From a virus: DNA of 64,000 nt. The stretch lies in IMG/VR virus record IMGVR_UViG_3300010167_000022; one strand, 5' to 3'. Positions 12,709 through 41,219 of the stretch are shown one piece after another (position 1 is the stretch's first letter; each line of letters opens with the position of its first letter). The position numbers were made by a program, and so were the translations under genes. The notes under the pieces were generated by a model. It searched no databases and was not told the origin of the DNA. It saw only the letters and a list, made by a program, of their open reading frames with translations.

Positions 12709-12742
12709 TTACTTATCACATCCTATCACTTAATATTGCAAT

Positions 12743-13701: not shown

Positions 13702-13730
13702 ATTATACTGTATCTATTGTATATTGTCAA
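13702..13730 (-). promoter_or_regulatory. perfect consensus sigma70 promoter TTGACA-N17-TATAAT
   Basis: revcomp reads acTTGACAatatacaatagatacagTATAATg; drives 13324..13647. Confidence 0.6.
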
Positions 13731-14020
13731 GTATATTATTTCTATGTGTTTGTATGCTCAATTCAGGACATATAATTTTATGTCATCAAGTGAATACACA
13801 ACCATTTATTATGCCGGGCAGCTTGTTTAATTATTAGGAAACTCCTATAGATATAAACAATTAACGGACTTGTTCTTCTAATATTTATCTAATAAATGTA
13901 TTGAAAATATATTTTTGTCGGTTACAGTTTAAAAGACTACAAAGCGCTTAAAACCCCTGAAATACAGCGTCTTATAAGAGATTAACAAGGATTGATTAAT
14001 CTTAAATAAGATATGTATTA

Positions 14021-14067
14021 CAGGACTTTGACTCCTGCACTCGAAGGTTCAAATCCTTCCAGCTCAG
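14021..14067 (+). other. 3' fragment of tRNA-Gln(UUG): anticodon arm, variable loop, T-arm and 3' acceptor strand; putative attP core
   Basis: CAGGA-cTTTGac-TCCTG anticodon arm; GAAGG-TTCAAAT-CCTTC T-arm; CAGCTCA acceptor 3' strand; no matching 5' half upstream; lies next to int. Confidence 0.55.
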
Positions 14068-14186: not shown

Positions 14187-15329
14187 CTAGCCTTGCAAAA
14201 CGTTGGTTATACCATTTAACATCATTTTTTTAGCGGATGCCTCTAATTTGGCGTAAAGGTTCATAGTCGTTCCTATATCTCCATGTCCTAACCATGCTTG
14301 AATATCCTTTAAATTATAACCAAGCGCTAAAAGTAAAGAGGCTGAAGAGTGCCGCAAATCATGTAGCCGGATATGTCTCATATTATTTTTTTTCAACAGT
14401 TTCCTAAAAGCTACAGATATATAGTTTGGGTTAATTAATTCCCCAACATCATTTACACATATATACCCATCATAATCATAGCAATATGACATCCCAAAAA
14501 TTTCCTTATTGATTTCCTGCTTGGATTTTAGCTCTGTTAAAAACGCCATAAATGTATCATCTAGTGGCATTGTCCGATAGCTAGATTTTGTTTTTAAGGT
14601 GTCGGAAAATTCTAATCTATATTTGCCATCATCATTGATAGGGACTACCTTATGACCTATGAAAAATGTTCTGTTGACCCAATCTACTGCACTCCACTTT
14701 AATCCAACAATTTCAGAACGTCGCAGACCAAAATATATGGCGAACATCAAAGGAGTTTCGATTGGTGAACATTTAATAACCCCCAAGAGAGTTGCAATTT
14801 CATCCTTGTTATAGAAATCGCCTATAAATTTCTGCTTTTTTGGCCTTTCTACAAAATCAGCAGGATTCTCTTTTATTGCACGTGTTTTTTTCGCATATTG
14901 TAGGGCAGTCCTTATAAGCGTAAGGTGTTTTATAACAGTGTTAGGACTTACAAACTTTAACTTATAAGTACAATAGGCTTGGATATGTTTGGTTGTTAAA
15001 TCTAGTAAACATATTCCTTTTTGATTAAAATACGGATGTATTTGTTTTAATAATCGCTTATACCCCGCATAAGTTATAGCTTCTACATTTGCCCGGTGCA
15101 TTTCAAGCCAGTCTGTAAGAAAATCACAGAATAGAATCCTAGTATCTTGCACATTCTGAACATCGCTATATTCTTCAATTTTTTGTTTTAGGAATTGATC
15201 TGCTTTTTTCTTATTCCCTATAATGGTATAACCTGTGCTAATCCATTTCTGGGTTTGTTTCCCACCGCTGTTAAAACATATAACAGCATAATACTTATTG
15301 TTCTTTTTTTGCAAGCTTCCAGTCGTCAC
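14187..15329 (-). CDS. int: tyrosine integrase (GTG start)
   Basis: C-terminal HDLRHSSASLLLALGYNLKDIQAWLGHGDIGTTMNLYAK (HxxR...Y); AAGGAGGG RBS. Confidence 0.85.
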   Translation of the reverse strand: MTTGSLQKKNNKYYAVICFNSGGKQTQKWISTGYTIIGNKKKADQFLKQKIEEYSDVQNVQDTRILFCDFLTDWLEMHRANVEAITYAGYKRLLKQIHPYFNQKGICLLDLTTKHIQAYCTYKLKFVSPNTVIKHLTLIRTALQYAKKTRAIKENPADFVERPKKQKFIGDFYNKDEIATLLGVIKCSPIETPLMFAIYFGLRRSEIVGLKWSAVDWVNRTFFIGHKVVPINDDGKYRLEFSDTLKTKSSYRTMPLDDTFMAFLTELKSKQEINKEIFGMSYCYDYDGYICVNDVGELINPNYISVAFRKLLKKNNMRHIRLHDLRHSSASLLLALGYNLKDIQAWLGHGDIGTTMNLYAKLEASAKKMMLNGITNVLQG

Positions 15330-16842: not shown

Positions 16843-17154
16843 TCACTCCTTCTGTACTATATTAATAAATTTATAGTTATCACTATAATTGTTATATTGC
16901 ATAACAAGTATATAATCTCCAATTTCTACAATACGTGGACTTACAACTGCTTGGTATATTACATTAACAACTATTCTATTTCCATCTATATCAGCTATAA
17001 ATGCTATTGGCTTATACTTGTTATCAATATCAATTCTTGTAACTATAGCAATTTGCATTGCGTTTTCATCATAATCATCGGATTTATCACACCAATTTGT
17101 AGATAGTACAATAATAAATGCTATTACTAAAACAATCTTAAAAAACTCCATCAT
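16843..17154 (-). CDS. small secreted protein (signal peptide)
   Basis: ORF 103 aa; MMEFFKIVLVIAFIIVLSTNWC. Confidence 0.45.
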   Translation of the reverse strand: MMEFFKIVLVIAFIIVLSTNWCDKSDDYDENAMQIAIVTRIDIDNKYKPIAFIADIDGNRIVVNVIYQAVVSPRIVEIGDYILVMQYNNYSDNYKFINIVQKE

Positions 17155-18538
17155 TATTCTCCATCACAAGATTATATTTGTATACAACAAATGCAATTAA
17201 ACTCTCTTTGTTATTTTTGTCTGGATTATCAATTACATATTCTAAGCAATTATTTAATATCTCTCCCAGTATCTTTCCTTGTACAAATCCAATGTTGATA
17301 AGGTCATATCCATTAATAGCTAAATCTCGTATTGTGAAAGCTTCGTTGTTAAATAATATGTCATGCCATATTGTTTTAATCTCAGAAACCTTACAAACCC
17401 ATTTATCATATTCGCCAGATCCCCACCTATGTGCCTTTTTATCAATTAGCTGGAATGCGAACAATTTTATGCATAAATCATGTCCTAACTTATTCAACAA
17501 CTTCTTTGCCACATTGCGTGTTGGCTGCAGCACAAAATCATGTGCTTCAACAAGTTTTAAAACTATTTCAATTGTTTTGTTGTCAAATCGCATCCGATGC
17601 ATAATCTCTTGTGCCATTTTAACAGAATATATTTCATGTCCATAGTAGTGATTAGTTAACCGCTTATCATCAAACACACGCGCTTTAAGTTTCCCTATAT
17701 CATGTAGGAGTATTGTCATTATCAACTCAATATCGTCTGTATAGCCAAAAAATATCATATCCATAGTATGAGTAAATACATCCGTATAATGCCATATGTT
17801 ATTATGTGTTATTTGAGCAAGCCCTATAAACTCCGGTATAATACGTTTAATTATATACTCAATCATACCGCGAAGTTTAGGATAATGATAAGTATCTTTG
17901 TCTAACTTATTTATAGCACATAATATTTTTACTATCTCTGCATTTTTACGTTCCATTGAGATATTTTTAAGATTATCACCACACTCAAAAATCGCATTAA
18001 TGACTTCTTTTGAAATATCAAAATCTAAAGTAGTAGCAAATCTAATTGCTCTCATTATACGTAATGCATTTTCATTAAACCTGTTCTCTGCGTTCCCAAC
18101 AGTCTTTATTATTTTATTTTTTAAATCAGATTGTCCGCCAAATAAATCAATAATCCCATATTCATCATTATATGCCATAGCATTAATAGAAAAATCCCGG
18201 CGGCATAAATCATCTTTAATAGTATTTGAAAAATTTACTGCATTTGGTCTCCTTCCATCTCCATATGACCCATCAGCACGATAAGTGGTTATTTCATATG
18301 ATACTTTATTTAATAACACAGTCATTGTTCCATACTTCTCACCAGTTGGTATTAAGTAATATGAACTAAAAATTTCTTTTATTTCATTAGGCATTGCGTT
18401 TGTGGCTATATCCCAGTCTTTAGGCACTACTCCCAATAACGAATCTCTAACACATCCGCCTACAATATACGCTTCAAATCCATTATTATTAAGTTCGCAC
18501 ATTATATTTCGAACATCTATTGGAAGATTGATTTCCAA
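17138..18538 (-). CDS. cca: tRNA nucleotidyltransferase (CCA-adding enzyme) with C-terminal HD domain
   Basis: GGCVRDSLLG head motif near the N-terminus; LLHDIGK HD motif; 466 aa. Confidence 0.8.
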   Translation of the reverse strand: MEINLPIDVRNIMCELNNNGFEAYIVGGCVRDSLLGVVPKDWDIATNAMPNEIKEIFSSYYLIPTGEKYGTMTVLLNKVSYEITTYRADGSYGDGRRPNAVNFSNTIKDDLCRRDFSINAMAYNDEYGIIDLFGGQSDLKNKIIKTVGNAENRFNENALRIMRAIRFATTLDFDISKEVINAIFECGDNLKNISMERKNAEIVKILCAINKLDKDTYHYPKLRGMIEYIIKRIIPEFIGLAQITHNNIWHYTDVFTHTMDMIFFGYTDDIELIMTILLHDIGKLKARVFDDKRLTNHYYGHEIYSVKMAQEIMHRMRFDNKTIEIVLKLVEAHDFVLQPTRNVAKKLLNKLGHDLCIKLFAFQLIDKKAHRWGSGEYDKWVCKVSEIKTIWHDILFNNEAFTIRDLAINGYDLINIGFVQGKILGEILNNCLEYVIDNPDKNNKESLIAFVVYKYNLVMENNDGVF

Positions 18539-18605
18539 TTATATCACAGCCTTTATTATCTTTTATACTTTCTTATAACAATTGAGCCAATTTAATCACC
18601 TATAT

Positions 18606-19106
18606 TTATAACAATTTTATTTCATGTTTATCAAAAACTTTATATGCATTTATTACAAAAACAGTTTCTTTAAATTTTTCACAAAAGGCTTTCGCATCGT
18701 ATTCTGTATCAAAAAATTTAAAACATTCATATGTAATTGCACTGTAATAATTTAAAAGCACTTTTGATTTTTCATTTATAATAGTAAATATATCTATATC
18801 ATAATCCTCATCAATATATGTAGATACTTTCCCATTTTCAGGGTAGCATTTATCAAACCATGTTAAACATGGGTTATGATTGTCGTCATAAAAGTCTGAT
18901 TTAGCAACAGTCTTATTAAATTCTAAAAACTCATTCATGCTAAAATCTAATCTATAGCTGCCAGCACCAACATATGATATAGAAGTAAGATATGCTTTCA
19001 TCTTTTCATTTTGATAATTTTCTCCATCATCTATTTTATCTGTAAACTGAACTGCAATTGGTTCTCCATTATCTTTTATCATTTTTATTAATTCTTTTAT
19101 ATGCAT
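18606..19106 (-). CDS. hypothetical protein
   Basis: ORF 166 aa. Confidence 0.5.
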   Translation of the reverse strand: MHIKELIKMIKDNGEPIAVQFTDKIDDGENYQNEKMKAYLTSISYVGAGSYRLDFSMNEFLEFNKTVAKSDFYDDNHNPCLTWFDKCYPENGKVSTYIDEDYDIDIFTIINEKSKVLLNYYSAITYECFKFFDTEYDAKAFCEKFKETVFVINAYKVFDKHEIKLL

Positions 19107-19132
19107 TTAAACACTCCAATAATATTAAATAT

Positions 19133-19543
19133 TTATAAAATATTCATATATTCCAAAAATTTTCTCGGATAATTTATTGATGGAGAAAGCATCTTAAAAA
19201 GCAACGCTAATAATTCTTCTTTATAATATTCATGTGCCGTTGTATAATACATTTTATCTGTACATAACGCATAAGAACCATATATACTTGGGTGTTTTTT
19301 GAATAATGATTTTTCGTTTTCAAATAATGAAATGAGCGAATCACTGTTAAAATTCCTAATAATCGGGCCACAATCAGCATATGATAGCAAATATGTATAT
19401 TCAATAATATCCGCTGGCGTGATATAAATATTTTCTAATCTATACTGTGTTGAATTACATTCACTATTATATTTTATTACTGTATCTGTAATAGCACTAA
19501 ATAAACCTATTATAGCTATTTCCTTGTTAACTAATATGCACAT
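19133..19543 (-). CDS. hypothetical protein
   Basis: ORF 136 aa. Confidence 0.5.
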   Translation of the reverse strand: MCILVNKEIAIIGLFSAITDTVIKYNSECNSTQYRLENIYITPADIIEYTYLLSYADCGPIIRNFNSDSLISLFENEKSLFKKHPSIYGSYALCTDKMYYTTAHEYYKEELLALLFKMLSPSINYPRKFLEYMNIL

Positions 19544-19692
19544 TTTTCAACTCCTTGATTACATCCTATATTTGCTTTTTCTTTACTAGCTATATAGTCT
19601 TATTTATTTCTCTAAAATATATTCGACGCAATTTTCATTGTATTTAGATACAATACATGTTGCAAATTTTACAATCCACCCATCCATTGATG

Positions 19693-20136
19693 CTAACAGT
19701 ATATTTTTGACTTCGGTGTCATTCCTCTGTGACAACACAATACCTCATAATCAGTCCTTGCATCAATAAGCGTCCACTGGATGAAGAACTCGTATTCTGG
19801 ATTGTTCTTCTCGACAACGTTTTTCAAGTATGCCATAATTGTGTCTACTACCTTATCTTGCATGCCTCGTGCATTCTTTACTGAGAATTTTAGCGATGGA
19901 TTTCTTTTGTTATATTCCTTATCGAAATTATATGTAACACGATTTTCATATACGATATTCCCATCGTCATAATAGTGAATACCGAAGTGATTGCAATAGA
20001 GTTTTTCGTTCTTATTGAAGTCGCACCTATATTCTTTGCAATAGTATTCGCGCTCGAACTCAATTTTGAAGTTGGCTAAACAGTCGTTGATAAATTGCTT
20101 ACGTGCCTTATGTTGCTTATATAAATTGATAATCAT
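19693..20136 (-). CDS. hypothetical protein, possibly an HNH-type homing endonuclease; locally GC-richer than neighbours
   Basis: ORF 147 aa; Cys/His pattern YRCDFNKNEKLYCNHFGIHYYDDGN; composition shift visible by eye. Confidence 0.4.
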   Translation of the reverse strand: MIINLYKQHKARKQFINDCLANFKIEFEREYYCKEYRCDFNKNEKLYCNHFGIHYYDDGNIVYENRVTYNFDKEYNKRNPSLKFSVKNARGMQDKVVDTIMAYLKNVVEKNNPEYEFFIQWTLIDARTDYEVLCCHRGMTPKSKIYC

Positions 20137-20258
20137 TTATAAACCCTCCAAATTGTCTCTTGAATTTTATTAAAAACTAAATATTTGAGTTGCGGAATGA
20201 TTTTTGCTAAAAATTTATCATTGGTTCTTCTATTAAGATTATTTATTATATATATCAT

Positions 20259-20432
20259 AATAATATTAGAAAATTATTTTTGCATCCATTCAAAGCCTAT
20301 AAAATGAGCAGGCCGGTTATACTCATCTCGCCACCTAGTTAGTTTTTTAAAAATAAATGGTAATAGTTTATAGTAATATGGGAGAGGAATCGCTGGTTCC
20401 CAACTTCCTTCTTTATTTTGTTGACTATTCAT
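20259..20432 (-). CDS. small hypothetical protein, about 57 aa
   Basis: manual: GGAGGA RBS then ATGAATAGTCAACAA...; not in track. Confidence 0.35.
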
Positions 20433-20465
20433 ATATAATTTCCTCCAAATTATTTTCTCTTTCTA

Positions 20466-20903
20466 TTAATCGGTTAACCCATTCAATACATTATTGATAA
20501 CATACTGTGCATATTTATCTGTCTTTGCTTTATTGTCTTTATAGACTACTTCTCCTGAATCATATATTAATGCTATAATTTTACTATCATCGCTATGATG
20601 TATTGTTTCCCATGCTTCAATAATAATATAATCTTTACAATCAAAATCTGCTAATATATTAACCCAATTACTATATCTATATAGTTGTTCTATTTCTGTG
20701 TTTAACTTTACTGCTCCAAGCATATCAAATCTACTTTCTAACCCCGCAAACATAGTTCGCCAGTCCAGCGATGGTGAAATAATGTCTTTAAATTCTTCCG
20801 TCGTAATTTCTTTACCGTCAACAATTATACCGCCTTCTAGTGTATCTGCATCTTGAACACCATATTCTTCACATAATTGTAAATACAAATCCTTATTAAA
20901 CAA
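20466..20903 (-). CDS. hypothetical protein (paralog of 53868..54164)
   Basis: ORF 145 aa; MFNKDLYLQLCEEYGVQDAD compared with MFDINLYLQLCKEYGVQAAD. Confidence 0.55.
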   Translation of the reverse strand: MFNKDLYLQLCEEYGVQDADTLEGGIIVDGKEITTEEFKDIISPSLDWRTMFAGLESRFDMLGAVKLNTEIEQLYRYSNWVNILADFDCKDYIIIEAWETIHHSDDSKIIALIYDSGEVVYKDNKAKTDKYAQYVINNVLNGLTD

Positions 20904-20920
20904 TCATATCACCTCTTTTA

Positions 20921-20948
20921 TTTTAATAGAATGCCTGTTCTATTCAGA
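20921..20948. promoter_or_regulatory. PeSL-like palindromic intergenic element
   Basis: ttttaatagaatgcctgttctattcaga; overlaps the stop codon of the upstream gene. Confidence 0.55.
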
Positions 20949-21602
20949 CTTGTATGACTTGTAGACTCTATTATTTAACCAGATAGCAATAGAGTCAAGG
21001 TTCTGAAATACTTTGCCGCCATTCTCTATAACCATTATTGCAACAGCCCTAAGAGACTTAATTTCATCATTATCAAACGTAAGTCCATCATCTTCTTCTA
21101 AAAAACAAAACAATGTTTTTTCTGGTCGCTTATTGCTGTCATCTACTACTTCAGCAATTGAAAATACACCATGCATTTTTGGAGTGATCACATATAAGCA
21201 ATAGTCGCACTCTTCACGCTGTTTGCATTCTTCTACCATACACTCTGGAGTCCAATCATCAACAACAGGGTTAAAATAGCCTATTTTTAACATGCTTATT
21301 AGTAAATCTCTCCAAGTGCTATTATTACATGTACCGCCTAAGAATACTTTTTTCTTTTTCGCATCTTTTCTTTCAAATAAATATTCAGGCCATAAAAGTG
21401 TCCCACCATCTTCTTTTATCTCATACACTATACGATTCATCTTTTTTATTACTCTGCTAATTGTTACAATTTTTCCTTTGAATTTCCCCATTGGTGGGAC
21501 ACAATGTTTTGTTCCACCATCAATCTCATAAGTGAAATCTTTTCTTATTATTAAAACATCTCCAATATTATATAATGGAGTTAATATTGTTCCATCATTC
21601 AT
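20940..21602 (-). CDS. nucleoside 2-deoxyribosyltransferase-like (Rcl/DUF4406-fold) protein with an N-terminal beta domain
   Basis: KKVFLGGTCNNSTW...CDYCLYVITPKMHGVFSIAEVVDD resembles the NDT family core with its catalytic Glu. Confidence 0.35.
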   Translation of the reverse strand: MNDGTILTPLYNIGDVLIIRKDFTYEIDGGTKHCVPPMGKFKGKIVTISRVIKKMNRIVYEIKEDGGTLLWPEYLFERKDAKKKKVFLGGTCNNSTWRDLLISMLKIGYFNPVVDDWTPECMVEECKQREECDYCLYVITPKMHGVFSIAEVVDDSNKRPEKTLFCFLEEDDGLTFDNDEIKSLRAVAIMVIENGGKVFQNLDSIAIWLNNRVYKSYKSE

Positions 21603-21617
21603 TATGATAACGCCCTT

Positions 21618-22931
21618 TTAATTATAATCTATTATTTCTTGTGCTTCTTCAATATCAGGTGATGTAGCTGAGTCTTTAATAATTCCCTCAATAACTTTGA
21701 AGTGCCAGTTTTTATGCTTAAATGCTGTAAATCTTTCTCTGTTTTCAATTCTAACAACTATGCCTTCTTTTATATGTGTTTTACCAATTGGATCGAACCC
21801 ATCACAATATTTATTTGCATGCTCCATAAGATCTTCAAATGTTGTATAAGTAAAACGTTCATATGTAGGACAATACCTAACCCCCATTTGTTCGCAACGA
21901 AGCTTCACTAATCCATATGGATACTCAACTACATAGCCATCCTCATTTGTAATTGTCATTCTATATACATAGGTTTGGCTCTCACCGTCATCACAACCAT
22001 ATGAAAAACGTGTCTTGTCACCATATTGTTTAATGAATTCTTTATCATTAACTTTTTTATTCGAGCAATCTGCCATTATAGGAGTGTTGGGGGAAACATA
22101 TCCAACAACCTCATAATAAACAGTTTCACCTTTTTGAAGTTTGCCAACAAATCTGTCATGATGCCGTTGTCGAAAAGCATTACTTCCATAGTAGCCACCA
22201 TTTAAGTCTTTTAGCACAACTCTTCTTGTTCCGCATACATATTCCCATGATTTTTTAATTTTAGGTAACAATCTTAACGCTTTAAATATTTTAACTAACC
22301 AATATGGCAAATATTTTCTTGTCTCTTTTAATGTATAAGATGTGCGTTGTGAGGTTCCATGCATCTTTAAAGTAATTTCACACTGATCTCCTTCTTTAAA
22401 AGCGTTTTTATTATATACAAGCTGTGATGTATCATAATGTTCCATAAATAAGGGAAAACTTGTTTTATCATATATTTTTTTAGATTTCTCTTTATTTTTC
22501 CCCACACTTTGTCTACGATGTTTGCCCATAGGAATATACTTTTCACAAATTAAAAGTCCATTTAATATAGTTATAGAATCTCCTTCATTAAGTATAGAAA
22601 CATCTGTAAATTTATTAAGTGAAATCAATGGCATAAATAAACCATCGCTCATTTCACCTCTTAGTTTTATAGCTTTAATATTTCGCTTTTCAGGATCAAG
22701 AAATCCACCTATTTGATTTCCATCTGCATCTTTATTACGTAGAAGATTATTTGCCGCGCAATACTCATTGCATAGTTTACCATCTATTGGGAAATAAATT
22801 CCTAATTCATCTTCTGATATATTTGTACTTACTATAACGTTGTTTCCAAAACACTCTCCAATCAGGAGTTTATCAGCATTTGTATGTCTTCTTAAGTTTT
22901 TTATTCTTGTTATATATGCGCAATAAGCCAT
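21618..22931 (-). CDS. ATP-dependent RNA ligase (Rnl2/Rnl5-like, with an N-terminal extension)
   Basis: nucleotidyltransferase motif I LKMHGTSQR (KxHGxx) at about aa 190; 437 aa. Confidence 0.6.
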   Translation of the reverse strand: MAYCAYITRIKNLRRHTNADKLLIGECFGNNVIVSTNISEDELGIYFPIDGKLCNEYCAANNLLRNKDADGNQIGGFLDPEKRNIKAIKLRGEMSDGLFMPLISLNKFTDVSILNEGDSITILNGLLICEKYIPMGKHRRQSVGKNKEKSKKIYDKTSFPLFMEHYDTSQLVYNKNAFKEGDQCEITLKMHGTSQRTSYTLKETRKYLPYWLVKIFKALRLLPKIKKSWEYVCGTRRVVLKDLNGGYYGSNAFRQRHHDRFVGKLQKGETVYYEVVGYVSPNTPIMADCSNKKVNDKEFIKQYGDKTRFSYGCDDGESQTYVYRMTITNEDGYVVEYPYGLVKLRCEQMGVRYCPTYERFTYTTFEDLMEHANKYCDGFDPIGKTHIKEGIVVRIENRERFTAFKHKNWHFKVIEGIIKDSATSPDIEEAQEIIDYN

Positions 22932-25944: not shown

Positions 25945-25972
25945 TTTTAATAGAACTGCACTTCTATTAAAA
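25945..25972. promoter_or_regulatory. PeSL-like palindromic intergenic element
   Basis: ttttaatagaactgcacttctattaaaa. Confidence 0.55.
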
Positions 25973-26593: not shown

Positions 26594-26622
26594 ATTATAA
26601 TATAACGTTTGTATATTGTCAA
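26594..26622 (-). promoter_or_regulatory. perfect consensus sigma70 promoter TTGACA-N17-TATAAT
   Basis: revcomp reads tacTTGACAatatacaaacgttatatTATAAT. Confidence 0.6.
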
Positions 26623-26769
26623 GTATCAATCAATTGATATATTCCTACAAATCTTTTCCCGGCTGTATAAATGTAACATGGAATAGCCATCTATACAAGT
26701 TTCTAATGGCGCAGAAATTTCTTATTGTTCTTGTTTTTTTGGTATAGGAATATTTGGGCCAAGTGGAAT

Positions 26770-26913
26770 CTATGAAATATTTCCATTGCAATTCGGGCAT
26801 TTATATTTGCTTCCATCTAAAAATGATTTTACTTCTTTTTTACTATAATAAGTCCATTCTGTTCTACATAACCAACAACTTAATGAATATTTAGACATCA
26901 AAAATTTAAACAT
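26770..26913 (-). CDS. small zinc-ribbon protein, 47 aa
   Basis: manual: GGAGGTG RBS then ATG; ...CWLCRTEW...CPNCNG; not in track. Confidence 0.4.
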   Translation of the reverse strand: MFKFLMSKYSLSCWLCRTEWTYYSKKEVKSFLDGSKYKCPNCNGNIS

Positions 26914-27088
26914 TCAATTTATCACCACACCTCCATTTTTATTTTATAGCATCTTAATAATGACATATTAATATCATTATCAAGATACCATAAAATGTAT
27001 AGCAAATTTCTATCCCCCTAATATCTATTGTATATTGTAATGTGATATATCAGAAAAGGCTTTCGCCTAATCTGTTATTTACTTATTT

Positions 27089-28189
27089 TTATCCAATATC
27101 TCTATAAATTACATTTCGCAATATATCTCTGCGTATAGATACGCTTAATAATTTTGCGCTTGCCGCTGAACATGCATTGTTGTATCCTTCATCGTGACTT
27201 GCCCGGTCATCATTTGTATTAAAAAATCCTTTAACCCTCTCTGCGAAGTCTTCTGCGCTTATACATCTCTGAATAGCAATTATAGCCATGTACATTAATG
27301 AAACCATGTGCGTTTTTCTATTCTTTATTTTATTAGACATTTTTTTCATGTCTGCCATAATAACAAAGAATGTCTTCATATAGTCAAGTGCTTTTGTCAT
27401 TTCTTCTTCCTGCTCAGGAGTTATTTCTTGCGTCCAAAGAATATGTCTTCCGTTTTTATCGTTCATCAATGAATGGTTACTAGCGTATGCCATTATTGCT
27501 GCATCTGCCGGAATATCTTCGTCTTCCAACTTCTTTTTCTTACTATCCTTTAATACACTGGCTATCCCCGGAAGTTTTGCAAGTTTAATGAATATATGTC
27601 TACTGCATATTCTTATACGGGAAAAGTCAGCAGGGGATATAGGTTTGTTGCTATTTATTTCAATGAAAAAATTAACCTTCTCTTCATGTGTCATATTAAA
27701 AAATGTAAAAGATAATAATACAGTTGATTTTAACTTATCCTGTATATCAGTAGGTAAGTCTTTAAAATATAGTCGTGCTATTACAAAATCTTCAGCAACT
27801 CCATCTTTTTCTACACGTATAGGTGGAACATCTTTATGGATAGAAAATTCTCCATGAATAAATCCTGAGATTGTTCTAATCCTCTGCTGTCCGTCTAACG
27901 CTTCGCTAGTCTTTTCAGCTTTGTTGAAGTACAATGGTGGTATTTGGACACCTCTTATTAAGGCGCGAATAAACATTCCTTTAACAATAGGATGCCAAAC
28001 ATCACCACGTTGTTCTAAAATATCTGTAATAATAGTTCTGTTTTTAAATTTGTTTGCAACACTTGATACACTCATATCAACCTTGCTTGACTCAGGTTCT
28101 ATTACTACATATACTGGCTTTACAACATGCTCGGGCACTATCATATTTGATTTTTCTTTTGCTTTTGCTTTTGTTCTTGCTGCTGGCAT
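27089..28189 (-). CDS. DUF262 / ParB-like nuclease-domain protein (GmrS-like N-terminal domain)
   Basis: LDGQQRIRTISGF (DGQQR signature motif); 366 aa. Confidence 0.55.
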   Translation of the reverse strand: MPAARTKAKAKEKSNMIVPEHVVKPVYVVIEPESSKVDMSVSSVANKFKNRTIITDILEQRGDVWHPIVKGMFIRALIRGVQIPPLYFNKAEKTSEALDGQQRIRTISGFIHGEFSIHKDVPPIRVEKDGVAEDFVIARLYFKDLPTDIQDKLKSTVLLSFTFFNMTHEEKVNFFIEINSNKPISPADFSRIRICSRHIFIKLAKLPGIASVLKDSKKKKLEDEDIPADAAIMAYASNHSLMNDKNGRHILWTQEITPEQEEEMTKALDYMKTFFVIMADMKKMSNKIKNRKTHMVSLMYMAIIAIQRCISAEDFAERVKGFFNTNDDRASHDEGYNNACSAASAKLLSVSIRRDILRNVIYRDIG

Positions 28190-28223
28190 AAAAGCATCTC
28201 CCTTCTAATTTGACTACTATTAT

Positions 28224-29279
28224 TTAAGATGTGTAACCAAATGCATACTTCCAATCGCTATAATCTTTCCTCCATCTCAATAATTTTAACATCAACTCTC
28301 CTTTGTCATTATACTCAACACGAAGATGATATGCAAGATATTTTGCAATTTCATATTCATAATTATCAATATCAGATGTAATTTTTACACCATTTATTTC
28401 TCCTTTTAGCTCACACTGATATAATCTATGAAATACACCTGATATGCGAACAGTAGAAGGAGATAGCTGTTCGCTTGATTTTGAAGTCTTATATATAACA
28501 CGTATAATACGATTTAATGAAGATAACGGAATCTGTGTTTGCTGTGTTCTTGCATTTTGCCTTAATTGTGGTCGTATTAAGTAGTCGTTATCTATTAGAG
28601 GAATCATTATATATTCTTCTGTTGTTGATTTTGTTGATCTTTCCGCCTGTGCATTTTTCTTTTCTATTCCATCAACATCTTGAAATCTAAGCCACAAATC
28701 AACTGTCTCGTCAGATAACTTTACAATATATCCACCCCCCAGCGTTATTGAATTTGTATTTAAATCAAGATCGGATTTTTTTAAATCTACAATATCATTG
28801 AATGTTAACCCGTCAAAAACCAAATGTAATACTAAACTATTTCGCATAGATGCATTAGGATAATTAACTGTATCAAGTCCATTAAAAATAATAGTTTTAA
28901 GCTGTTCATAATCCCCTAGCATCTTACTAGTGATTGTGCTTTTTTCTTTTAATGCATCTACAGTCATTATGTCAAAAGCCTTTTTGTCTTTTGTAATCCC
29001 CTTTACTAACAAAGCCCACGATGCATATCCTCTCATTGATGCTAAAAAATGAGATATTGATAAATCTCGTCTTATCCCTAGTGATAAAAATGCTATTTTT
29101 AATTCATCGTAAGTCATAAATATTATATCTGTACCATTATCGCCAGTTGAAACCTCTGCATCGTATAGTCGTTTAAAATAGTTTTCCAATGCAATTTTAT
29201 TGCTTTCCTTTTTTTCAAAATCAATGTACTCTTCTTTCAAATTCCTGTTAAACATTAATGTCCTAACTTGTTTACCCAC
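28224..29279 (-). CDS. hypothetical protein, possibly a degenerate tyrosine-recombinase-like fold
   Basis: 351 aa; RNSLVLHLVFDGLTFNDIVDLKKSDLD resembles recombinase box I; ...GVFHRLYQ...YLAYH; very uncertain. Confidence 0.45.
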   Translation of the reverse strand: MGKQVRTLMFNRNLKEEYIDFEKKESNKIALENYFKRLYDAEVSTGDNGTDIIFMTYDELKIAFLSLGIRRDLSISHFLASMRGYASWALLVKGITKDKKAFDIMTVDALKEKSTITSKMLGDYEQLKTIIFNGLDTVNYPNASMRNSLVLHLVFDGLTFNDIVDLKKSDLDLNTNSITLGGGYIVKLSDETVDLWLRFQDVDGIEKKNAQAERSTKSTTEEYIMIPLIDNDYLIRPQLRQNARTQQTQIPLSSLNRIIRVIYKTSKSSEQLSPSTVRISGVFHRLYQCELKGEINGVKITSDIDNYEYEIAKYLAYHLRVEYNDKGELMLKLLRWRKDYSDWKYAFGYTS

Positions 29280-29335
29280 GACTAATCACCATCCTTTATT
29301 TAATTTATACATAGTTTATATATCATGTTTCATAT

Positions 29336-29364
29336 AATATATATTAGCCGTGGGTAATTGTCAA
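29336..29364 (-). promoter_or_regulatory. sigma70-like promoter TTGACA-N17-TATATT
   Basis: revcomp reads aatcTTGACAattacccacggctaataTATATT, upstream of 28224..29279. Confidence 0.4.
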
Positions 29365-29370
29365 GATTAA

Positions 29371-29778
29371 TTACAAATAAACAACATATTCAGTATCTAC
29401 ATATATTCTGTTGTTATTTGCACCAACGGCTTTTTTAAACTTTATAATTAGATCTATTAATTCATTTACGCACTTCATTGACTGTGGCTCTAATTCTTCT
29501 TCTAGTTCACTATTGTAATGTTCTAACTTGCCAACCCATACTGCATCTTCTAATATTGTAGTTGGTGGCAAATCAAATCCTATTGCTGCATAATACTCTC
29601 CATTGTTATATACATCTGCACATACAATTTCATATGTTTCTGTAGTATCGGCATTATTAACATATGCCTCATTTGTCGCAAATGTATGTATTGTATTAGG
29701 ACATGCCAAAACATATTCTGCAAACTGTCTTGTTGATTTAGGTTCCACCCATGTGTTATTAGGCTGTGATGTATACAT
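29371..29778 (-). CDS. hypothetical protein
   Basis: ORF 135 aa. Confidence 0.5.
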   Translation of the reverse strand: MYTSQPNNTWVEPKSTRQFAEYVLACPNTIHTFATNEAYVNNADTTETYEIVCADVYNNGEYYAAIGFDLPPTTILEDAVWVGKLEHYNSELEEELEPQSMKCVNELIDLIIKFKKAVGANNNRIYVDTEYVVYL

Positions 29779-29799
29779 AATATAATTGCCCCCTTTAGT

Positions 29800-30996
29800 C
29801 TAATATATACCATTATTACTTAATCCACTAAAAATATTACTTAGAAACTCATTACTATTATTCCCATGCTTTCCTTCCAGTGCATCAATAATACTTTTAT
29901 CAAATACAGGATAAATATTTTTACTTCTGAAATAATTAATTACTCTTTCTACTTCATCATCGCTGATATATGCCCCTTGTATCCTCATAGGATTCATATC
30001 ATTTTCTCTTTTAAATAGCATATCACCCTTTCCAAGTAATGATTCAGCACCTGTCCTACCTAGTGCAACCATAGAACTTTGTGGTTTATCTACTGCAAAT
30101 ACTATTTTAGTCTGCAAGTTATCTTTTATGCGGGAAGTTATAATATCAGCAGATGGTCTTTGTGTTGCTACTATTAAATGAATCCCAGCAGCTCTACTTA
30201 GCTGAGATATTTTAATTATTGCATCTTCTACTTTTTTTGATGATGACATTATAAGCTGAGATAATTCATCAATTATAACTACTATCCTATATAACTTTTT
30301 GTCATTCATATTATTCTTTTCTAATATCTCATTGTATCTATCTATATTTCTTATAGGAATATTATTTAGCTTTGCTATCTGATTTAATAATTCATATCTT
30401 CTATTTGTTTCTTCGCAAAGCCATTCTAGCATTATTTCTGCTTTTTTTTCATCTGTTATAACTGGGGCCAATAGATGTGGAATATTTTCATAAGGTGTTA
30501 ATTCCACTTTCTTTGGGTCTAATAATACAAGCCGTAATTCTTTTACTGGTTCCATTATTAAACTTGATATTAATACATTTATAAATACAGACTTGCCAGA
30601 ACCTGATGCCCCAGCGATTAATATGTTTCTTAACTCCGGTAGGCTTCCATATATTTTTTCCCCGCATTGACTTTCTCCAATTGCAAACTTTAGCGGAGCT
30701 GTTGAGCTTTTGTATTCTGAAGATCTTATAATATCTCCAATTCTCAATATCTCATTAGATTTATTAGAAACTTCTATTCCAATTGAATTATTAGCCATCT
30801 GCACAATTTGTACAGTTTCCGCTTTCAACCTTATACGTATATCTTCTTTAGCTCTTTTTAGTTTTGCCGATTTTTCGCCGTCTACCATATGAAGTTCGTA
30901 TGTTGTTGTTACACGACCTTGTATATCTCCAATTACAATTGCATTTATACCAAGCACTTTTAATATATTTTGTACTTGTGCATATTTATCAATCAT
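29800..30996 (-). CDS. FtsK/SpoIIIE-family DNA translocase motor ATPase
   Basis: Walker A LIAGASGSGKSV; Walker B VVIIDELSQL; LIVATQRPSADIITSRIKDN...GRTGAESLLGKGDML matches the FtsK motor core. Confidence 0.75.
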   Translation of the reverse strand: MIDKYAQVQNILKVLGINAIVIGDIQGRVTTTYELHMVDGEKSAKLKRAKEDIRIRLKAETVQIVQMANNSIGIEVSNKSNEILRIGDIIRSSEYKSSTAPLKFAIGESQCGEKIYGSLPELRNILIAGASGSGKSVFINVLISSLIMEPVKELRLVLLDPKKVELTPYENIPHLLAPVITDEKKAEIMLEWLCEETNRRYELLNQIAKLNNIPIRNIDRYNEILEKNNMNDKKLYRIVVIIDELSQLIMSSSKKVEDAIIKISQLSRAAGIHLIVATQRPSADIITSRIKDNLQTKIVFAVDKPQSSMVALGRTGAESLLGKGDMLFKRENDMNPMRIQGAYISDDEVERVINYFRSKNIYPVFDKSIIDALEGKHGNNSNEFLSNIFSGLSNNGIY

Positions 30997-31016
30997 GAAA
31001 ATTCCCGCCTTTAGCT

Positions 31017-31565
31017 TTAGTCAAAAATAGATTCAATTTCTTTGCCGTCAAAACATTGTCGTGTATTATCAGATTCTATAGTATACAAATCGTCATAAGT
31101 ATCTATAGCCATTTGTGTTTCAATATAGTTAAGACATTCGATTAAAAATATATTAAGTTCGCTTCTTGCTAATTTATAATTATTACATGCTTCTTTTCTA
31201 TTAACGCCAAGCACATAACATGTTTTTATCGCATATGCAACAAGTTCATCTTCTAATAAAAATAATAACTTTTGTTCCATATCATTTGGTAATTGTCCTG
31301 ACTTTGCAAAATTTATAAGGGATTTTGTTGGCACGCTATCTACATATAATATAAAATTATTTGCTACATTATAAAAATCTTCAATGTTTAACTTTCTATG
31401 TGATTTATTTCTAGTGTTCCTTACTATATTTACAGCAGTTTCAATATCTTTTTTTATACGCATTTCGCCAGATGCTTTCATTTTTCTTTCAAAATCGTCA
31501 CGATACAATTTTGAAACTACAATAAAAAATACAATCAAAAGAATAAACATAGTAAAATAACCCAT
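31017..31565 (-). CDS. single-pass membrane protein (possible anchor partner of the FtsK-like ATPase)
   Basis: ORF 182 aa; MGYFTMFILLIVFFIVVS. Confidence 0.45.
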   Translation of the reverse strand: MGYFTMFILLIVFFIVVSKLYRDDFERKMKASGEMRIKKDIETAVNIVRNTRNKSHRKLNIEDFYNVANNFILYVDSVPTKSLINFAKSGQLPNDMEQKLLFLLEDELVAYAIKTCYVLGVNRKEACNNYKLARSELNIFLIECLNYIETQMAIDTYDDLYTIESDNTRQCFDGKEIESIFD

Positions 31566-31777
31566 TATATCATCTCGCTATCTCCATTAAGTGAATTGCA
31601 AAACTTTTCATATGCATTAGTCGCAATAACCAAATCGTTTTTTGAATATTCTGCATAATGCATATGCCTACCGTCTACAAATATTGTTATGTCTAATTTT
31701 TTTTTGTTGTCAATCAACCTCCCAAACATTTCTAAACCGTTTGGGCTATGTCCTAAAAACATATAATCTTTATCCAT
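31565..31777 (-). CDS. hypothetical protein
   Basis: ORF 70 aa. Confidence 0.45.
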   Translation of the reverse strand: MDKDYMFLGHSPNGLEMFGRLIDNKKKLDITIFVDGRHMHYAEYSKNDLVIATNAYEKFCNSLNGDSEMI

Positions 31778-31802: not shown

Positions 31803-31830
31803 TTTTAATAGAAGAGTTCTTCTATTAAAA
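31803..31830. promoter_or_regulatory. PeSL-like palindromic intergenic element
   Basis: ttttaatagaagagttcttctattaaaa. Confidence 0.55.
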
Positions 31831-32390: not shown

Positions 32391-32512
32391 ATATTTTTGT
32401 GTTCATTATAATTATTCCATTCTTTAACTGTCAATTTTATTCTCCTATCTATCATCCAAAAATTTGAATCAAATTACACTTCTATATAAAATTCGTTAGC
32501 TGTAATATTACT

Positions 32513-32830
32513 CTATTTATTAGCATACTTCTCTAAACTATCTCGTTCACTTTGCCGCTGCCACTTTTGATTTATAATACTCATTACCTTTTCGTATCCA
32601 TATAAATGAGCTAATGATATAATACAAATAAGCGAATCGGCTACTTCTTCAATTATATCATTAATATTTTCCTTCTTGCGCAATTTCTTTATTAGAGCCT
32701 TAGTAAGCTCTGCCATTTCTTCGATTGCCATAATTTCTTGGTATGATTCACCATAAATCTCATGTAACTCTTTAATACGATTGATAAAGTTGTGGTCTAC
32801 TCGATAAGAATTGCAATCATTAATTTTCAA
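32513..32830 (-). CDS. mazG: MazG-like nucleoside triphosphate pyrophosphohydrolase
   Basis: EEMAELTKAL and EEVADSLICIISLA (paired EExxE/D metal-binding helices); 105 aa. Confidence 0.55.
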   Translation of the reverse strand: MKINDCNSYRVDHNFINRIKELHEIYGESYQEIMAIEEMAELTKALIKKLRKKENINDIIEEVADSLICIISLAHLYGYEKVMSIINQKWQRQSERDSLEKYANK

Positions 32831-34595: not shown

Positions 34596-35144
34596 TTATT
34601 TTGAATTAACTTTTAATTCTTCATCAAGCAGTCTCTTAACCTTATCAATTTCTTCTTTAGTATGAACAACCCCACCACTATTCATTTCTAAATACCAACG
34701 CAAAACTTGCTCTCGTGTTTTTAAATCATTTACATTTACTCGTAAATTTAACATTCTCATTCTATTTGTTCCAGTAAAATCTTTATAATAATTATCAAAT
34801 ACTTTTATCTCATTATTCATAAATTGTCGTATTGATGTAAGCCGTTGCAATCCATCTACGCATACAAAATCATTATATCTATTATCATCAATATCAACAA
34901 CAGTATGCCATGAAGGATTGTTGAGATAAATTATATTTGCAGTCCTACCACCTTGTAAAACAAACTCTATATATTTAGAACTTTGTTCATTACTCCAAAC
35001 CCTCCCACGTTGAAAATCTGGATTCAACTGCAATCCACGCTCTGATACTTCTTCATCAATGAATTCCAATAAAGATTTAAAACTATAACTACATTCCCAT
35101 TGTCCACTTTCTGTGAATTGTGGGATATCATTAAAATTTATCAT
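34596..35144 (-). CDS. DUF262 / ParB-like nuclease-domain protein (short form)
   Basis: CVDGLQRLTSIRQF (DGxQR motif); 182 aa. Confidence 0.5.
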   Translation of the reverse strand: MINFNDIPQFTESGQWECSYSFKSLLEFIDEEVSERGLQLNPDFQRGRVWSNEQSSKYIEFVLQGGRTANIIYLNNPSWHTVVDIDDNRYNDFVCVDGLQRLTSIRQFMNNEIKVFDNYYKDFTGTNRMRMLNLRVNVNDLKTREQVLRWYLEMNSGGVVHTKEEIDKVKRLLDEELKVNSK

Positions 35145-35762: not shown

Positions 35763-35791
35763 ATTATACCATATCTATTGTTTATTGTCAA
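35763..35791 (-). promoter_or_regulatory. perfect consensus sigma70 promoter TTGACA-N17-TATAAT
   Basis: revcomp reads catTTGACAataaacaatagatatggTATAAT. Confidence 0.6.
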
Positions 35792-35799
35792 ATGATTGT

Positions 35800-37843: not shown

Positions 37844-37871
37844 TTTTAATAGAAGAAATATTCTATTAAAA
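37844..37871. promoter_or_regulatory. PeSL-like palindromic intergenic element
   Basis: ttttaatagaagaaatattctattaaaa. Confidence 0.55.
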
Positions 37872-38769: not shown

Positions 38770-39357
38770 TTATAATAAATCAAAAATCCCGTCTCCACAA
38801 TCTTCATTCCACTGCATAATGAATTCATATGTGAATGTATCGCTTAGATTGTTATAAATATCTATAACTGTCCATCCATCATCTATAAGCCTAAATATAT
38901 ATTCTGTCACATTATTTACAATCAACTCATCAAATGATATATTAATTATTGATTCTTTTTCTTTTTCTTTTTCTTGTATGCTTCTTTCTTCTATTTCTAT
39001 CGCTTCTTTAGAAGCAATAGTTTCGCTTTCGATTATTTCAGCAACAATTTTTAATAGGTCATCTTTTGATAAATTATTAGAATATAAAAACTTGCAATCT
39101 GTAAATGTTATGTTGTTGATAAGATGAATAGAATAATAATATTCACTTGGTTCTAAATCCCATTTTTCTTCAGTTATATGTAGTGAAGCTTTATTCCCAT
39201 TTTTGTCTTCTAAGAATAAACAATAGTCCCCTGCACATCTATCCCCATTATCATTTGTTTCTCCATCTTTTTCAAGTCTTTCTAACAGCATATTAGTTAA
39301 TATTCCTGGTTGTACAATAGTTTTAAACATATATTCACCTAATTTCAGAATTCTCAA
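38770..39357 (-). CDS. acidic hypothetical protein
   Basis: ORF 195 aa. Confidence 0.5.
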   Translation of the reverse strand: MRILKLGEYMFKTIVQPGILTNMLLERLEKDGETNDNGDRCAGDYCLFLEDKNGNKASLHITEEKWDLEPSEYYYSIHLINNITFTDCKFLYSNNLSKDDLLKIVAEIIESETIASKEAIEIEERSIQEKEKEKESIINISFDELIVNNVTEYIFRLIDDGWTVIDIYNNLSDTFTYEFIMQWNEDCGDGIFDLL

Positions 39358-40291
39358 TTAAAACTAGTTTCCAATCTCCGCTATGATAGATTGTTTTTGT
39401 ACGACTGTCTTTTATTACAGCATTATCACACAGTATAATACTATCTTGTTTTATACCTTTTGAGAACAAATTATTTTGTATTGACACAATTGAGCTATCT
39501 CTCATCTCTCTTACAGTCGAGCTACCCCACATCTCTCTTATATTTGAACTTCCACTCATCACTCCTACAATTGAGCTTTCCCACATCGTTTCTACGGTTG
39601 AGTTATCACACATCAGACGCACAGTTGAGCTATCTCTCATATCTCTAACAGTTGATCCTTGCAACATCTTTTCTACAATTGATCTTTGCCTCATCACTCC
39701 TACAGTTGAGCTATCCCACATCTTTTCTACAATTGAGCTATCATTCATCTCTCTTATATTTGAGCTATCCCACATCTCTCTTACAGTTGAGCTATCACAC
39801 ATCTCTCTTATATTTGAGCTATCCCACATCACTCCTACAGTTGAGCTATCACACATCTTTTCTACAATTGTGCTATCACACATCAGACGCACAGTTGAGC
39901 TTTTCAACATTGCAATATTTACATTGCCTGTCAATATAATATCGTTACAATCTTTTAAATAATAATTAGCTCCTGTTGACAATTCTAATCCGTCAACACC
40001 AATATAAATACGGGATTTAGCCCATTCTTTTACTGCAGTGATCATGCGTTCTTTTTCATAATCTTTAACAAACCAGTCAGGCACTATATCTTGGTTAACA
40101 TTAAATCTCCATGTAGCAATATCAGAAAAGACATTATTGTCTTGTGGAATAAGTTCTACACGTACAAAAATAGGCTTAGTATTTTCGGGATTGCCATCTA
40201 TATTTAATTCTTTAAACATATCTGCATAATTGTCGTAGTCTGGTATAAAAACTCTATCCTTTAAAATAATTCCACTTTTAAACAAATACAT
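39335..40291 (-). CDS. tandem 8-residue-repeat protein (about 18 units of xDSSTVxEM); start at MYLFKSG after an AAAAGGGG RBS
   Basis: 24-bp DNA repeats 39480-39915, in frame; the track's first 22 codons read through the upstream palindrome. Confidence 0.55.
   Translation of the reverse strand: MYLFKSGIILKDRVFIPDYDNYADMFKELNIDGNPENTKPIFVRVELIPQDNNVFSDIATWRFNVNQDIVPDWFVKDYEKERMITAVKEWAKSRIYIGVDGLELSTGANYYLKDCNDIILTGNVNIAMLKSSTVRLMCDSTIVEKMCDSSTVGVMWDSSNIREMCDSSTVREMWDSSNIREMNDSSIVEKMWDSSTVGVMRQRSIVEKMLQGSTVRDMRDSSTVRLMCDNSTVETMWESSIVGVMSGSSNIREMWGSSTVREMRDSSIVSIQNNLFSKGIKQDSIILCDNAVIKDSRTKTIYHSGDWKLVLIENSEIR
39480..39915. repeat. imperfect 24-bp tandem repeat array, about 18 units, coding
   Basis: units such as tacagttgagctatcacacatctc; no unique spacers. 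Confidence 0.7.
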
Positions 40292-40330
40292 ATAAATAAC
40301 CCCTTTTATTATAATATTTTTATTTTTTAA

Positions 40331-40358
40331 TTTGAATAGAATGCGTCTTCTATTCAAA
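40331..40358. promoter_or_regulatory. PeSL-like palindromic intergenic element
   Basis: tttgaatagaatgcgtcttctattcaaa. Confidence 0.55.
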
Positions 40359-41191: not shown

Positions 41192-41219
41192 TTTAAATAG
41201 AAATGATCTTCTATTAAAA
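41192..41219. promoter_or_regulatory. PeSL-like palindromic intergenic element
   Basis: tttaaatagaaatgatcttctattaaaa. Confidence 0.55.

Follow-up and report, generated by a model that had tools for sequence, protein, structure and literature searches.

A putative SPβ-type lysogeny-control module beside a gamma-less FtsK motor in a large uncultured phage

Introduction

To our knowledge, master repressors with a recombinase fold were recognised only between 2023 and 2025, and solely in SPβ-like Bacillus phages. Such proteins are the point of comparison for the locus analysed here: a gene block at 27,089-31,565 of a 64,000-nucleotide stretch of viral DNA (IMG/VR record IMGVR_UViG_3300010167_000022; hereafter the window) that encodes a protein with a tyrosine-recombinase fold (28224..29279), a DUF262 protein (27089..28189), an FtsK/SpoIIIE motor ATPase (29800..30996) and a small membrane protein (31017..31565). 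These four open reading frames (ORFs), together with that of a second DUF262 protein (34596..35144), lie on the minus strand where an earlier note on this DNA, made from the sequence alone, had placed them.

MrpR, the SPβ master repressor, is a protein of tyrosine-recombinase fold in which three of the seven catalytic residues remain; it binds the repeated SPBRE element, and no recombination by it was seen (PMC10516654). As a monomer, SroF of phi3T clamps a box of 24-26 bp at many genomic sites; SroE is reported to be a second factor that lysogeny requires (bioRxiv 10.1101/2025.11.27.690993). The SPβ genes yopP, yopQ and yopR are sroD, sroE and sroF (PMC10769878), part of the six-gene sro lysogeny operon (yopMNOPQR = sroABCDEF). 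MazF is central to the lysis-lysogeny decision of SPβ and phi3T, and in phi3T it is the host MazF that acts (PMC10769878). Phage FtsK/SpoIIIE genes, by comparison, are functionally uncharacterised, the literature offering conjecture on segregation or replication (PMC11526630).

Taken together, the data suggest, with a probability of roughly 0.62, that two units stand side by side in this region, which belongs to the accessory arm of a temperate phage of ~225 kb. Unit A, comprising 28224..29279 and 27089..28189, would be a variant form of the lysogeny-control module known from SPβ, and Unit B a host-derived DNA pump lying beside it.

An MrpR/SroF-like protein with replaced catalytic residues

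The gene at 28224..29279 (minus strand; true start likely Met9, at 29255) encodes a protein with the two-domain tyrosine-recombinase fold, core-binding plus catalytic-like. The protein matches the Pfam family MrpR_N_CB (PF22822) at 7.9e-8 (33.3 bits; cut-off 27) and, over its full length, the 'integrase' family PHROG 5830 at 4e-17. Precomputed annotation of an identical protein (P0001) carries PF22822 together with PF22823 (MrpR_C_cat), and MrpR_C_cat is also found in the precomputed annotation of homologues. When 50,697 phage records were searched by tblastn, the only matches were yopR of the SPβ group and one gene of Bacillus phage vB_BcoS-136; in a pairwise alignment of 337 columns it shares 25% identity with YopR (E 2e-9). 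HMMER, run exhaustively against 1.84 billion representatives, returned 87 relatives (clusters at 50% identity), most of ~300-350 aa, and the few that can be placed come from Oscillospiraceae metagenome-assembled genomes and one termite-gut metagenome. A word-index protein search found the protein itself alone, an exact look-up of P0001 returned no record, and pattern scans of IMG/VR gave no confirmed relative.

An AlphaFold model (AF2) built on an alignment with 66 of the 87 relatives has a predicted local distance difference test score (pLDDT) of 94.2 and a predicted template-modelling score of 0.91. Ranks 1-7 of its Foldseek matches in the PDB are held by MrpR (8a0a), YopR (8bj6/8bpz) and phi3T SroF (9rd5/9rgl), with E-values from 4e-11 to 6e-7, and superposition on the SroF-DNA complex gives template-modelling scores of 0.59/0.64. 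Tn1549 Int, XerA and Cre rank below these. The earlier note had suspected a recombinase from weak sequence blocks and had made the fold the test of its idea; Pfam, PHROG, AF2 and Foldseek all place the fold here. The description of those blocks as weak was also apt, as Pfam Phage_integrase (PF00589) gives no match at E<=10 and yet recognises the phage's real integrase at 7.6e-22. An hhalign comparison with a canonical integrase reaches no more than E 0.0024 and a probability of 12%.

Analysis of the active site shows T159 in the place of catalytic Arg-I (GLR motif) and S275 in that of His-II. Among 37-66 family members the Arg-I, His-II and Arg-II columns vary, and the structural residues F35, D51, Y85, G157, S280 and G281 are invariant or nearly so. 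Because the fold is present but Arg-I and His-II are replaced, their columns are variable and Phage_integrase finds no match, the protein is very probably inactive as an enzyme, as far as its residues indicate. Membership of the MrpR/SroF family and loss of catalysis, taken as one claim, are likely with good confidence. That the protein serves this phage as a repressor, putatively by binding DNA, is narrowly favoured.

Several further features are shared with MrpR and SroF. In each case the two-domain fold (the best structural match) and the Pfam N-terminal family occur in a protein of ~320-350 aa that has lost Arg-I and His-II, and the gene has a neighbour whose family is placed in the ParB superfamily, the phage being temperate and its host one of the Bacillota (for the window, probably so). 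By alignment, G157 (GL motif) appears to be the glycine mutated in the SPβ c2 allele, G136E (PMC10516654). The differences are that the window protein keeps Arg-II where MrpR has Val; that its partner is of the DUF262, not the DndB-like, type and is encoded downstream of it instead of upstream; and that the genome is that of a ~225 kb uncultured phage, as against a 134 kb SPbetavirus, with neither aimR/aimP nor yopM-N-O homologues detected in the window.

The earlier note had proposed Xer/FtsK-like multimer resolution or segregation, in which an active recombinase would work at a dif-like site, driven by FtsK, with the ParB-fold proteins serving partition. XerA, XerH and Cre are indeed among the structural matches of 28224..29279, its Tyr, Lys and one Arg are kept, and NCBIfam XerC matches it weakly (0.014). 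The replaced Arg-I and His-II, whose columns the family does not conserve, and the missing Phage_integrase match argue otherwise, as do the nearest characterised relatives, which are repressors without recombination activity (PMC10516654; bioRxiv 10.1101/2025.11.27.690993). In a comparison with the ParB of ParABS partition systems (an N-terminal CTPase domain and a parS-binding HTH, with ParA as partner), DUF262 alone was detected, and no ParA was seen in the block.

A DUF262 protein adjoins the MrpR-like gene across related loci

The gene at 27089..28189 (minus strand) encodes a DUF262 protein of ParB/Srx fold with a DGQQR motif and a conserved helical C-terminal domain. It matches Pfam GmrSD_N/DUF262 at 8.7e-11, above the curated cut-off, and two profiles over its full length: PHROG 2598 (6.8e-24) and PADLOC NsnA (1.8e-16). 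PADLOC PD-T4-2_A is also matched. A single-sequence structure model reaches a pLDDT of 33. The second DUF262 protein of the earlier note (34596..35144, minus strand; 182 aa, DGLQR) likewise passes the curated cut-off (GmrSD_N, 4.1e-12; PHROG 1583, 1.4e-26) and consists of the N-terminal ParB-fold domain alone. It is weakly similar to the family of 27089..28189 (DUF262a) and is not its orthologue. Neither protein has a DUF1524/HNH-type nuclease domain in Pfam at E<=0.1.

Conservation of the neighbourhood was assessed in 11 related loci (L003, L004, L005, L006, L007, L010/L011, L012, L013, L019, vB_BcoS-136 and SPβ). A DUF262 orthologue adjoins the MrpR-like gene in eight of them (L003, L004, L005, L007, L010/L011, L012, L013 and L019), with 26-47% identity among members and 26-36% to the window protein. 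The three without it are L006 (a short contig), vB_BcoS-136 (where the gene lies at the record end) and SPβ. A 12.7-kb Logan contig (L008) has a gene order identical to that of the window. The neighbourhood conservation that the earlier note had called for thus holds for the MrpR-like/DUF262 pair but not for the rest of the block, as FtsK lies near the pair in the window and L013 alone and the membrane protein is without detectable homologues.

In SPβ, the gene next to yopR is yopQ, whose product matches Pfam DndB. The DndB and DUF262 Pfam families both belong to the ParB/Srx-like superfamily. The closest parallel is the IMG/VR contig L013, in which DUF262 lies directly upstream of the MrpR-like gene in the order integrase-like, DUF262, MrpR-like. 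This equals the yopP-yopQ-yopR order of SPβ and reproduces the core trio of sro: tyrosine-integrase-like (SroD/YopP), ParB-superfamily (SroE/YopQ) and MrpR-like (SroF/YopR). The window departs from the sro operon in having the MrpR-like gene before DUF262 and an FtsK operon directly upstream. Its module has no integrase-like member because the phage's integrase lies 13 kb away. In L013 the MrpR-like protein (11978-13069) is extended at its C-terminus by a NikA-like ribbon-helix-helix segment (Pfam, 4.9e-8).

A toxin gene is often attached. Directly after the pair, a PemK/MazF-type gene is found at 12492-12872 of L005, 12120-12488 of L010 (2412-2780 of L011), 11920-12282 of L012 and 1768-2193 of L019. 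In L005 and L012 the toxin gene is followed by a large serine integrase beside host sporulation-associated genes (small acid-soluble spore protein, SASP, and SpoIVA_C); these modules sit at a prophage end. A PemK-type toxin and a serine integrase at this position fit a lysogeny module and echo the role of MazF in phi3T. Between the pair and the toxin gene, no obvious antitoxin gene was called in these relatives.

An FtsK motor reduced to its alpha and beta domains

The 398-aa product of 29800..30996 (minus strand) matches Pfam FtsK_SpoIIIE at 2.6e-47 and FtsK_alpha at 7e-9. Its motifs are GASGSGKS (Walker A), VVIIDELSQL (Walker B), ATQRPS and GRTGAESLLGKGDML; GAESLLGKGDML is present too. The E. 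coli FtsK motor structure 2IUS aligns to residues 15-364 (4.6e-68) with every motif present. As in chromosomal FtsK/SpoIIIE (E. coli 2IUS, P. aeruginosa 2IUU), the alpha and beta domains therefore come with Walker A/B, the ATQRPS arginine-finger region and GAESLLGxGDML. In contrast to the chromosomal proteins (~600-1300 aa), this phage-encoded version begins inside the alpha domain and stops ~40 residues past the beta domain, leaving a bare motor in which no N-terminal multi-pass membrane domain, linker or hydrophobic segment of any kind was found. Pfam finds no gamma winged-helix domain (PF09397), which most of the closest homologues listed have. The complete motor without gamma that the earlier note had read from the motifs is borne out by both the Pfam domains and the 2IUS alignment.

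The nearest relatives are FtsK proteins of 41-43% identity, the named organisms being mostly Bacillota (Clostridia, Bacilli). The best PHROG family is PHROG 1358 (2.2e-77), and 364 phage records carry a relative. PHROG 1358 and 3551, the FtsK/SpoIIIE-like families of Bacillus and Mycobacterium phages, are uncharacterised and filed as host takeover or moron genes; their profiles are much longer (758-1382 positions), and the window protein corresponds to the motor core alone. Since all catalytic motifs are in place, 29800..30996 is probably an active hexameric double-stranded DNA translocase captured from a host FtsK, to judge from its residues.

The gamma domain is the part of FtsK that activates XerD and reads the polar sequences KOPS and SRS. 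Lacking it, 29800..30996 can neither read KOPS/SRS nor activate XerD, which speaks against multimer resolution. The dif-like or KOPS-like motifs that the earlier note had suggested seeking did not exceed chance in the window, nor did any KOPS/SRS-type skew.

Upstream of the FtsK gene by 20 nt lies 31017..31565 (minus strand), whose 182-aa product has one N-terminal transmembrane helix, as the earlier note had stated; the hydrophobic segment spans residues 1-19. A word-index search of 5.8 billion proteins found the protein itself alone, making it an ORFan. PHROG, NCBIfam and PADLOC gave no match, and Pfam gave a sub-threshold PapB-like one (3.7e-4). In neither L013 nor L014 does the FtsK-like gene have a transmembrane neighbour. 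The idea of a split FtsK with a separate anchor thus rests solely on the 20-nt gap, and membrane anchoring by this protein is a guess from gene position. Unit B (31565..29371) would be a four-gene operon in which these two genes are flanked by a 70-aa ORF (31565..31777, minus strand), translationally coupled to the membrane-protein gene by the overlap of its stop with that gene's start, and a gene for a 135-aa acidic protein without family match (29371..29778, minus strand), located between the FtsK and MrpR-like genes. Upstream of the operon, 32513..32830 encodes a 105-aa MazG-like nucleotide pyrophosphohydrolase (Pfam sub-threshold, 0.0043).

In L013 an FtsK-like gene occurs ~3.6 kb upstream of the DUF262 gene, and within the 7-10 kb examined around the pair in L005, L010, L012 and SPβ there is none. 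With FtsK near the pair in two of six informative loci, the linkage is sporadic. The joint presence of FtsK, recombinase-fold and ParB-fold proteins in the window and L013 would suit multimer resolution, and its lack in the other four loci would not. The possibility that SroE is itself FtsK-like was rejected, as a comparison of FtsK with YopQ showed them to be unrelated.

Candidate promoters and repeated sites

A sigma-70-type promoter-like site, TTGACA-17-TATATT, lies at 29336..29364 (minus strand), in the 92-nt gap directly upstream of the MrpR-like gene; it is recognised by consensus match alone. A sigma-70-like promoter also precedes the block (32434..32405). Four paralogous promoters on the minus strand are perfect or near-perfect TTGACA-17-TATAAT with a conserved spacer (13349-13381, 13702-13734, 26594-26626 and 35763-35795). 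The perfect copy at 26594-26626 starts the next transcription unit downstream of the module. Between it and the DUF262 gene is an uncalled small ORF (~26750-26890, minus strand; ~42-47 aa) with two CxxC pairs (MSKYSLSCWLCRTEW...KCPNCNGNIS), resembling a zinc-ribbon peptide.

These promoters share a 17-nt box, ACAATATACAATAGATA. An exact copy is located at 27022..27038 (minus strand), 51 nt past the DUF262 stop codon; three of the four promoters contain the box in their -35/spacer region (13358, 13711 and 35772), and the fourth has a degenerate copy (26603). Allowing up to 3 mismatches, the window holds 11 matches against 2.5 expected. The promoter copies are paralogues and so are not independent evidence. 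The box is a reasonable candidate for an SPBRE-like operator, and the four promoters are candidate early promoters carrying it.

A second repeated element is the palindrome AATAGAA-N6-TTCTATT, with 16 exact copies in the window (0.05 expected); at up to 2 mismatches there are 31, compared with 2-6 in shuffles. The extended consensus is TTTnAATAGAA-N6-TTCTATTnAAA, with the spacer fixed at 6 bp and arms of ~11 bp. Nearly all copies fall between a stop codon and the Shine-Dalgarno sequence of the next gene; examples are at 7982-8001, 20925-20944, 25949-25968, 31807-31826, 37848-37867, 40335-40354, 41196-41215, 44975-44994, 48089-48108, 53843-53862, 59301-59320, 62459-62478 and 63742-63761. The copy at 31807..31826 forms the upstream boundary of the block (31777 to 27089), the 70-aa ORF being the first gene after it. 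The next copy downstream is 25949-25968, and none lies inside the FtsK-to-DUF262 block. The longest palindrome-free stretch is 8.0-20.9 kb (the integrase/NAD-salvage region), and the next longest include 25.9-31.8 kb (the FtsK/MrpR-like block). No comparable palindrome family was found in L010, L012 or L013. A 105-nt direct repeat (87% identity; 20811-20915 and 54072-54176, 33 kb apart) has a palindrome copy directly after each of its two copies.

Two conventional roles for the palindrome were considered. As a sigma-70 promoter (TTGAAT-16-TAAAAT) it is rejected, since Shine-Dalgarno sequences start 3-6 nt after it and leave no space for a leader. As a terminator it is weak: it has no U-tract, and its mean minimum free energy is -4.6 kcal/mol. 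An operator, a phage-specific promoter and an RNA-level element are equally possible. The palindrome is laid out like a tyrosine-recombinase (Xer/Cre) core site, and the MrpR-like protein is therefore tempting as its binding partner; SroF, however, binds an asymmetric box as a monomer. The resemblance of the 6-bp spacer and ~11-bp arms to Xer/Cre core sites would also suit multimer resolution, but with 31 such sites active in 64 kb the genome would be scrambled.

Genomic setting

The window has ~29% GC, and nearly every gene is on the minus strand. The products of 28224..29279 and 29800..30996 are on record on a 225,398-bp contig of the JGI (Joint Genome Institute). Among the 50,697 phage records, none is a near DNA relative of the window. 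The phage's canonical tyrosine integrase is encoded at 14187..15329 (minus strand; PHROG_1 7.6e-69, Pfam Phage_integrase 7.6e-22). Adjoining it is a tRNA-like fragment on the plus strand (14003-14059; Rfam tRNA 29.2 bits, model positions 8-63; no ARAGORN call); it is probably the core of attP, with a tRNA gene as the phage's integration site. The integrase and this plausible attP make a temperate lifestyle, and the need for a repressor, reasonable. The host is probably a low-GC, Clostridia-like member of the Bacillota.

Proposed roles of the two units

If Unit A works as its SPβ counterpart does, the MrpR-like protein, no longer cutting DNA, would clamp specific DNA boxes with both domains and repress lytic promoters. 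The DUF262 co-factor may bind nucleotide and assist or stabilise silencing, as SroE does genetically in SPβ-like phages. The pair is probably under its own host-type promoter (29364..29336). In Unit B, the FtsK motor has lost the modules by which FtsK is anchored at the septum, reads KOPS and activates XerD. The job of the motor, proposed with low confidence as is any specific role, might be sequence-blind DNA pumping or protein stripping in lysogeny/maintenance or early infection, possibly tethered to the membrane via the upstream protein, and not Xer-dependent dimer resolution.

A number of observations weigh against this proposal. Identity of 28224..29279 to MrpR is ~25%, and its MrpR_C_cat domain was not recovered by a local Pfam scan at E<=10. 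It keeps Arg-II (R278, in a column not conserved in the family), the Lys of the beta-hairpin (as aligned pairwise to MrpR) and the nearly invariant C-terminal Tyr Y340, so that some residual DNA chemistry is possible from sequence. Its operator is represented by candidate sites alone. For its partner, an hhalign profile comparison of DUF262a with YopQ gives a probability of 0.5%, that is, no homology; the equivalence with SroE is therefore positional and at the level of the superfamily, not demonstrated orthology. DUF262a homologues also occur without an MrpR-like neighbour, in Enterocloster phage PMBT24, Alicyclobacillus phage MMB025 and L020. The window contains no PemK/MazF homologue, and in its other large ORFs Pfam finds neither arbitrium genes nor AimR-like or other regulators. 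The presence of FtsK near the pair in L013 as well makes a functional link between the two units possible.

Among the alternatives, a defence/anti-defence or toxin-linked exclusion cassette (a prophage moron) is unlikely and less well supported than lysogeny control. Here, the DUF262 proteins would be NTPase sensors like those of GmrSD, BrxU, SspE or NsnA, FtsK an SspH/mad8-like motor, and the recombinase-fold protein a regulator or DNA-targeting subunit. The resemblance is real at the N-terminus, where 27089..28189 has the DUF262 domain and DGQQR motif of GmrSD, BrxU, SspE and Menshen NsnA, and it extends along the full length in the PADLOC NsnA match noted above, with PD-T4-2_A as a further match; the DUF262a profile also weakly matches the DUF262-domain structure 7p9k (0.0085). 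In contrast to the systems named, the DUF1524/HNH nuclease is missing, no NsnB or NsnC was found in the other five neighbouring proteins scanned with PADLOC and no Ssp or Dnd partner among the six, and the conserved neighbour is MrpR-like. PADLOC likewise matches FtsK to SspH (6.7e-50) and mad8 (5.4e-29), but these matches span the generic motor domain alone. Further points in its favour come from the surroundings: a PemK toxin accompanies the pair in relatives, at prophage ends of the kind where defence morons gather; the homologue in the Alicyclobacillus phage bears a DefenseFinder annotation; and counter-defence genes (NAD salvage, tRNA repair) are abundant in the window. Set against this, the most constant neighbour of DUF262a is the MrpR-like gene, and those relatives of its product that have been characterised are master repressors; the L013 gene order equals that of the SPβ repressor operon.

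A second alternative, quite unlikely, gives the palindromes the leading part. The 31 copies would be operators on which the domesticated recombinase docks as a dimer, at recombinase-type sites scattered over the ~225 kb genome, and with DUF262 and possibly the gamma-less FtsK it would silence or organise the whole prophage. If true, a chromosome-segregation toolkit (FtsK, Xer, ParB) would have been rebuilt as a genome-wide lysogeny silencer.

The third alternative concerns FtsK, whose position by the repressor pair would be incidental. It is improbable that the motor serves DNA transfer or coupling in the manner of a conjugation ATPase (TraB, TcpA, Tn916 Orf21-like), carrying DNA of the element from cell to cell or into another compartment such as a forespore, with the membrane protein as its anchor. 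NikA-like and DUF6876 genes are typical of mobilisable elements. The L013 FtsK-like gene stands among such genes, including a separate NikA-like one, and L013 may for that reason be a mobilisable element rather than a phage. Second-tier PDB matches are to a 'DNA translocase coupling protein' (6o1z, 3e-17), and plasmid TraB of NCBIfam matches at 1.5e-11; the protein is nevertheless far nearer chromosomal FtsK (1e-84, with the alpha domain present) than coupling proteins. Hosts of relatives have sporulation-associated genes (SASP, SpoIVA_C), and Bacillus phage FtsK/SpoIIIE genes have been placed in replication or relaxation operons (PMC11526630), but no relaxase or other transfer gene was seen in the window, a DNA-recognition domain (gamma or winged helix-turn-helix) is missing and the membrane protein is not conserved. 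Finally, Xer/FtsK-like multimer resolution is very improbable, given the lost catalytic residues, the missing gamma domain, the want of any dif-like site beyond chance and a lineage whose best-studied member, MrpR, does not recombine (PMC10516654).

The lysogeny-control reading has consequences beyond this phage. The locus and its relatives, in 87 clusters, extend the MrpR/SroF family well beyond SPbetaviruses, with a ParB-fold protein (here DUF262 and not DndB-like) as constant companion and a MazF/PemK toxin gene often attached. This offers a comparative handle on the function of SroE and on why the lysis-lysogeny decision involves MazF. Annotation of large Bacillota phages also calls for caution, since genes named 'integrase' or 'DUF262/defence protein' there may regulate lysogeny. 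For its part, the gamma-less FtsK motor appears to be a clean case of a phage capturing the engine alone of a host DNA pump.

Other features of the window

Besides the integrase, the window carries genes for nicotinamide phosphoribosyltransferase (NAMPT), ribose-phosphate pyrophosphokinase (phosphoribosyl pyrophosphate, PRPP, synthetase), a CCA-adding tRNA nucleotidyltransferase and an RNA ligase. These members form a likely counter-defence/auxiliary cluster for NAD+ (nicotinamide adenine dinucleotide) salvage and tRNA repair, at 9390-12708 and 17138-22931. The CCA-adding enzyme is 60% identical to its L010 counterpart. Elsewhere, the ORF 39335..40357 (340 aa, without family match) contains ~19 tandem units of 27 nt at 39459-39964, which encode a 9-residue repeat.

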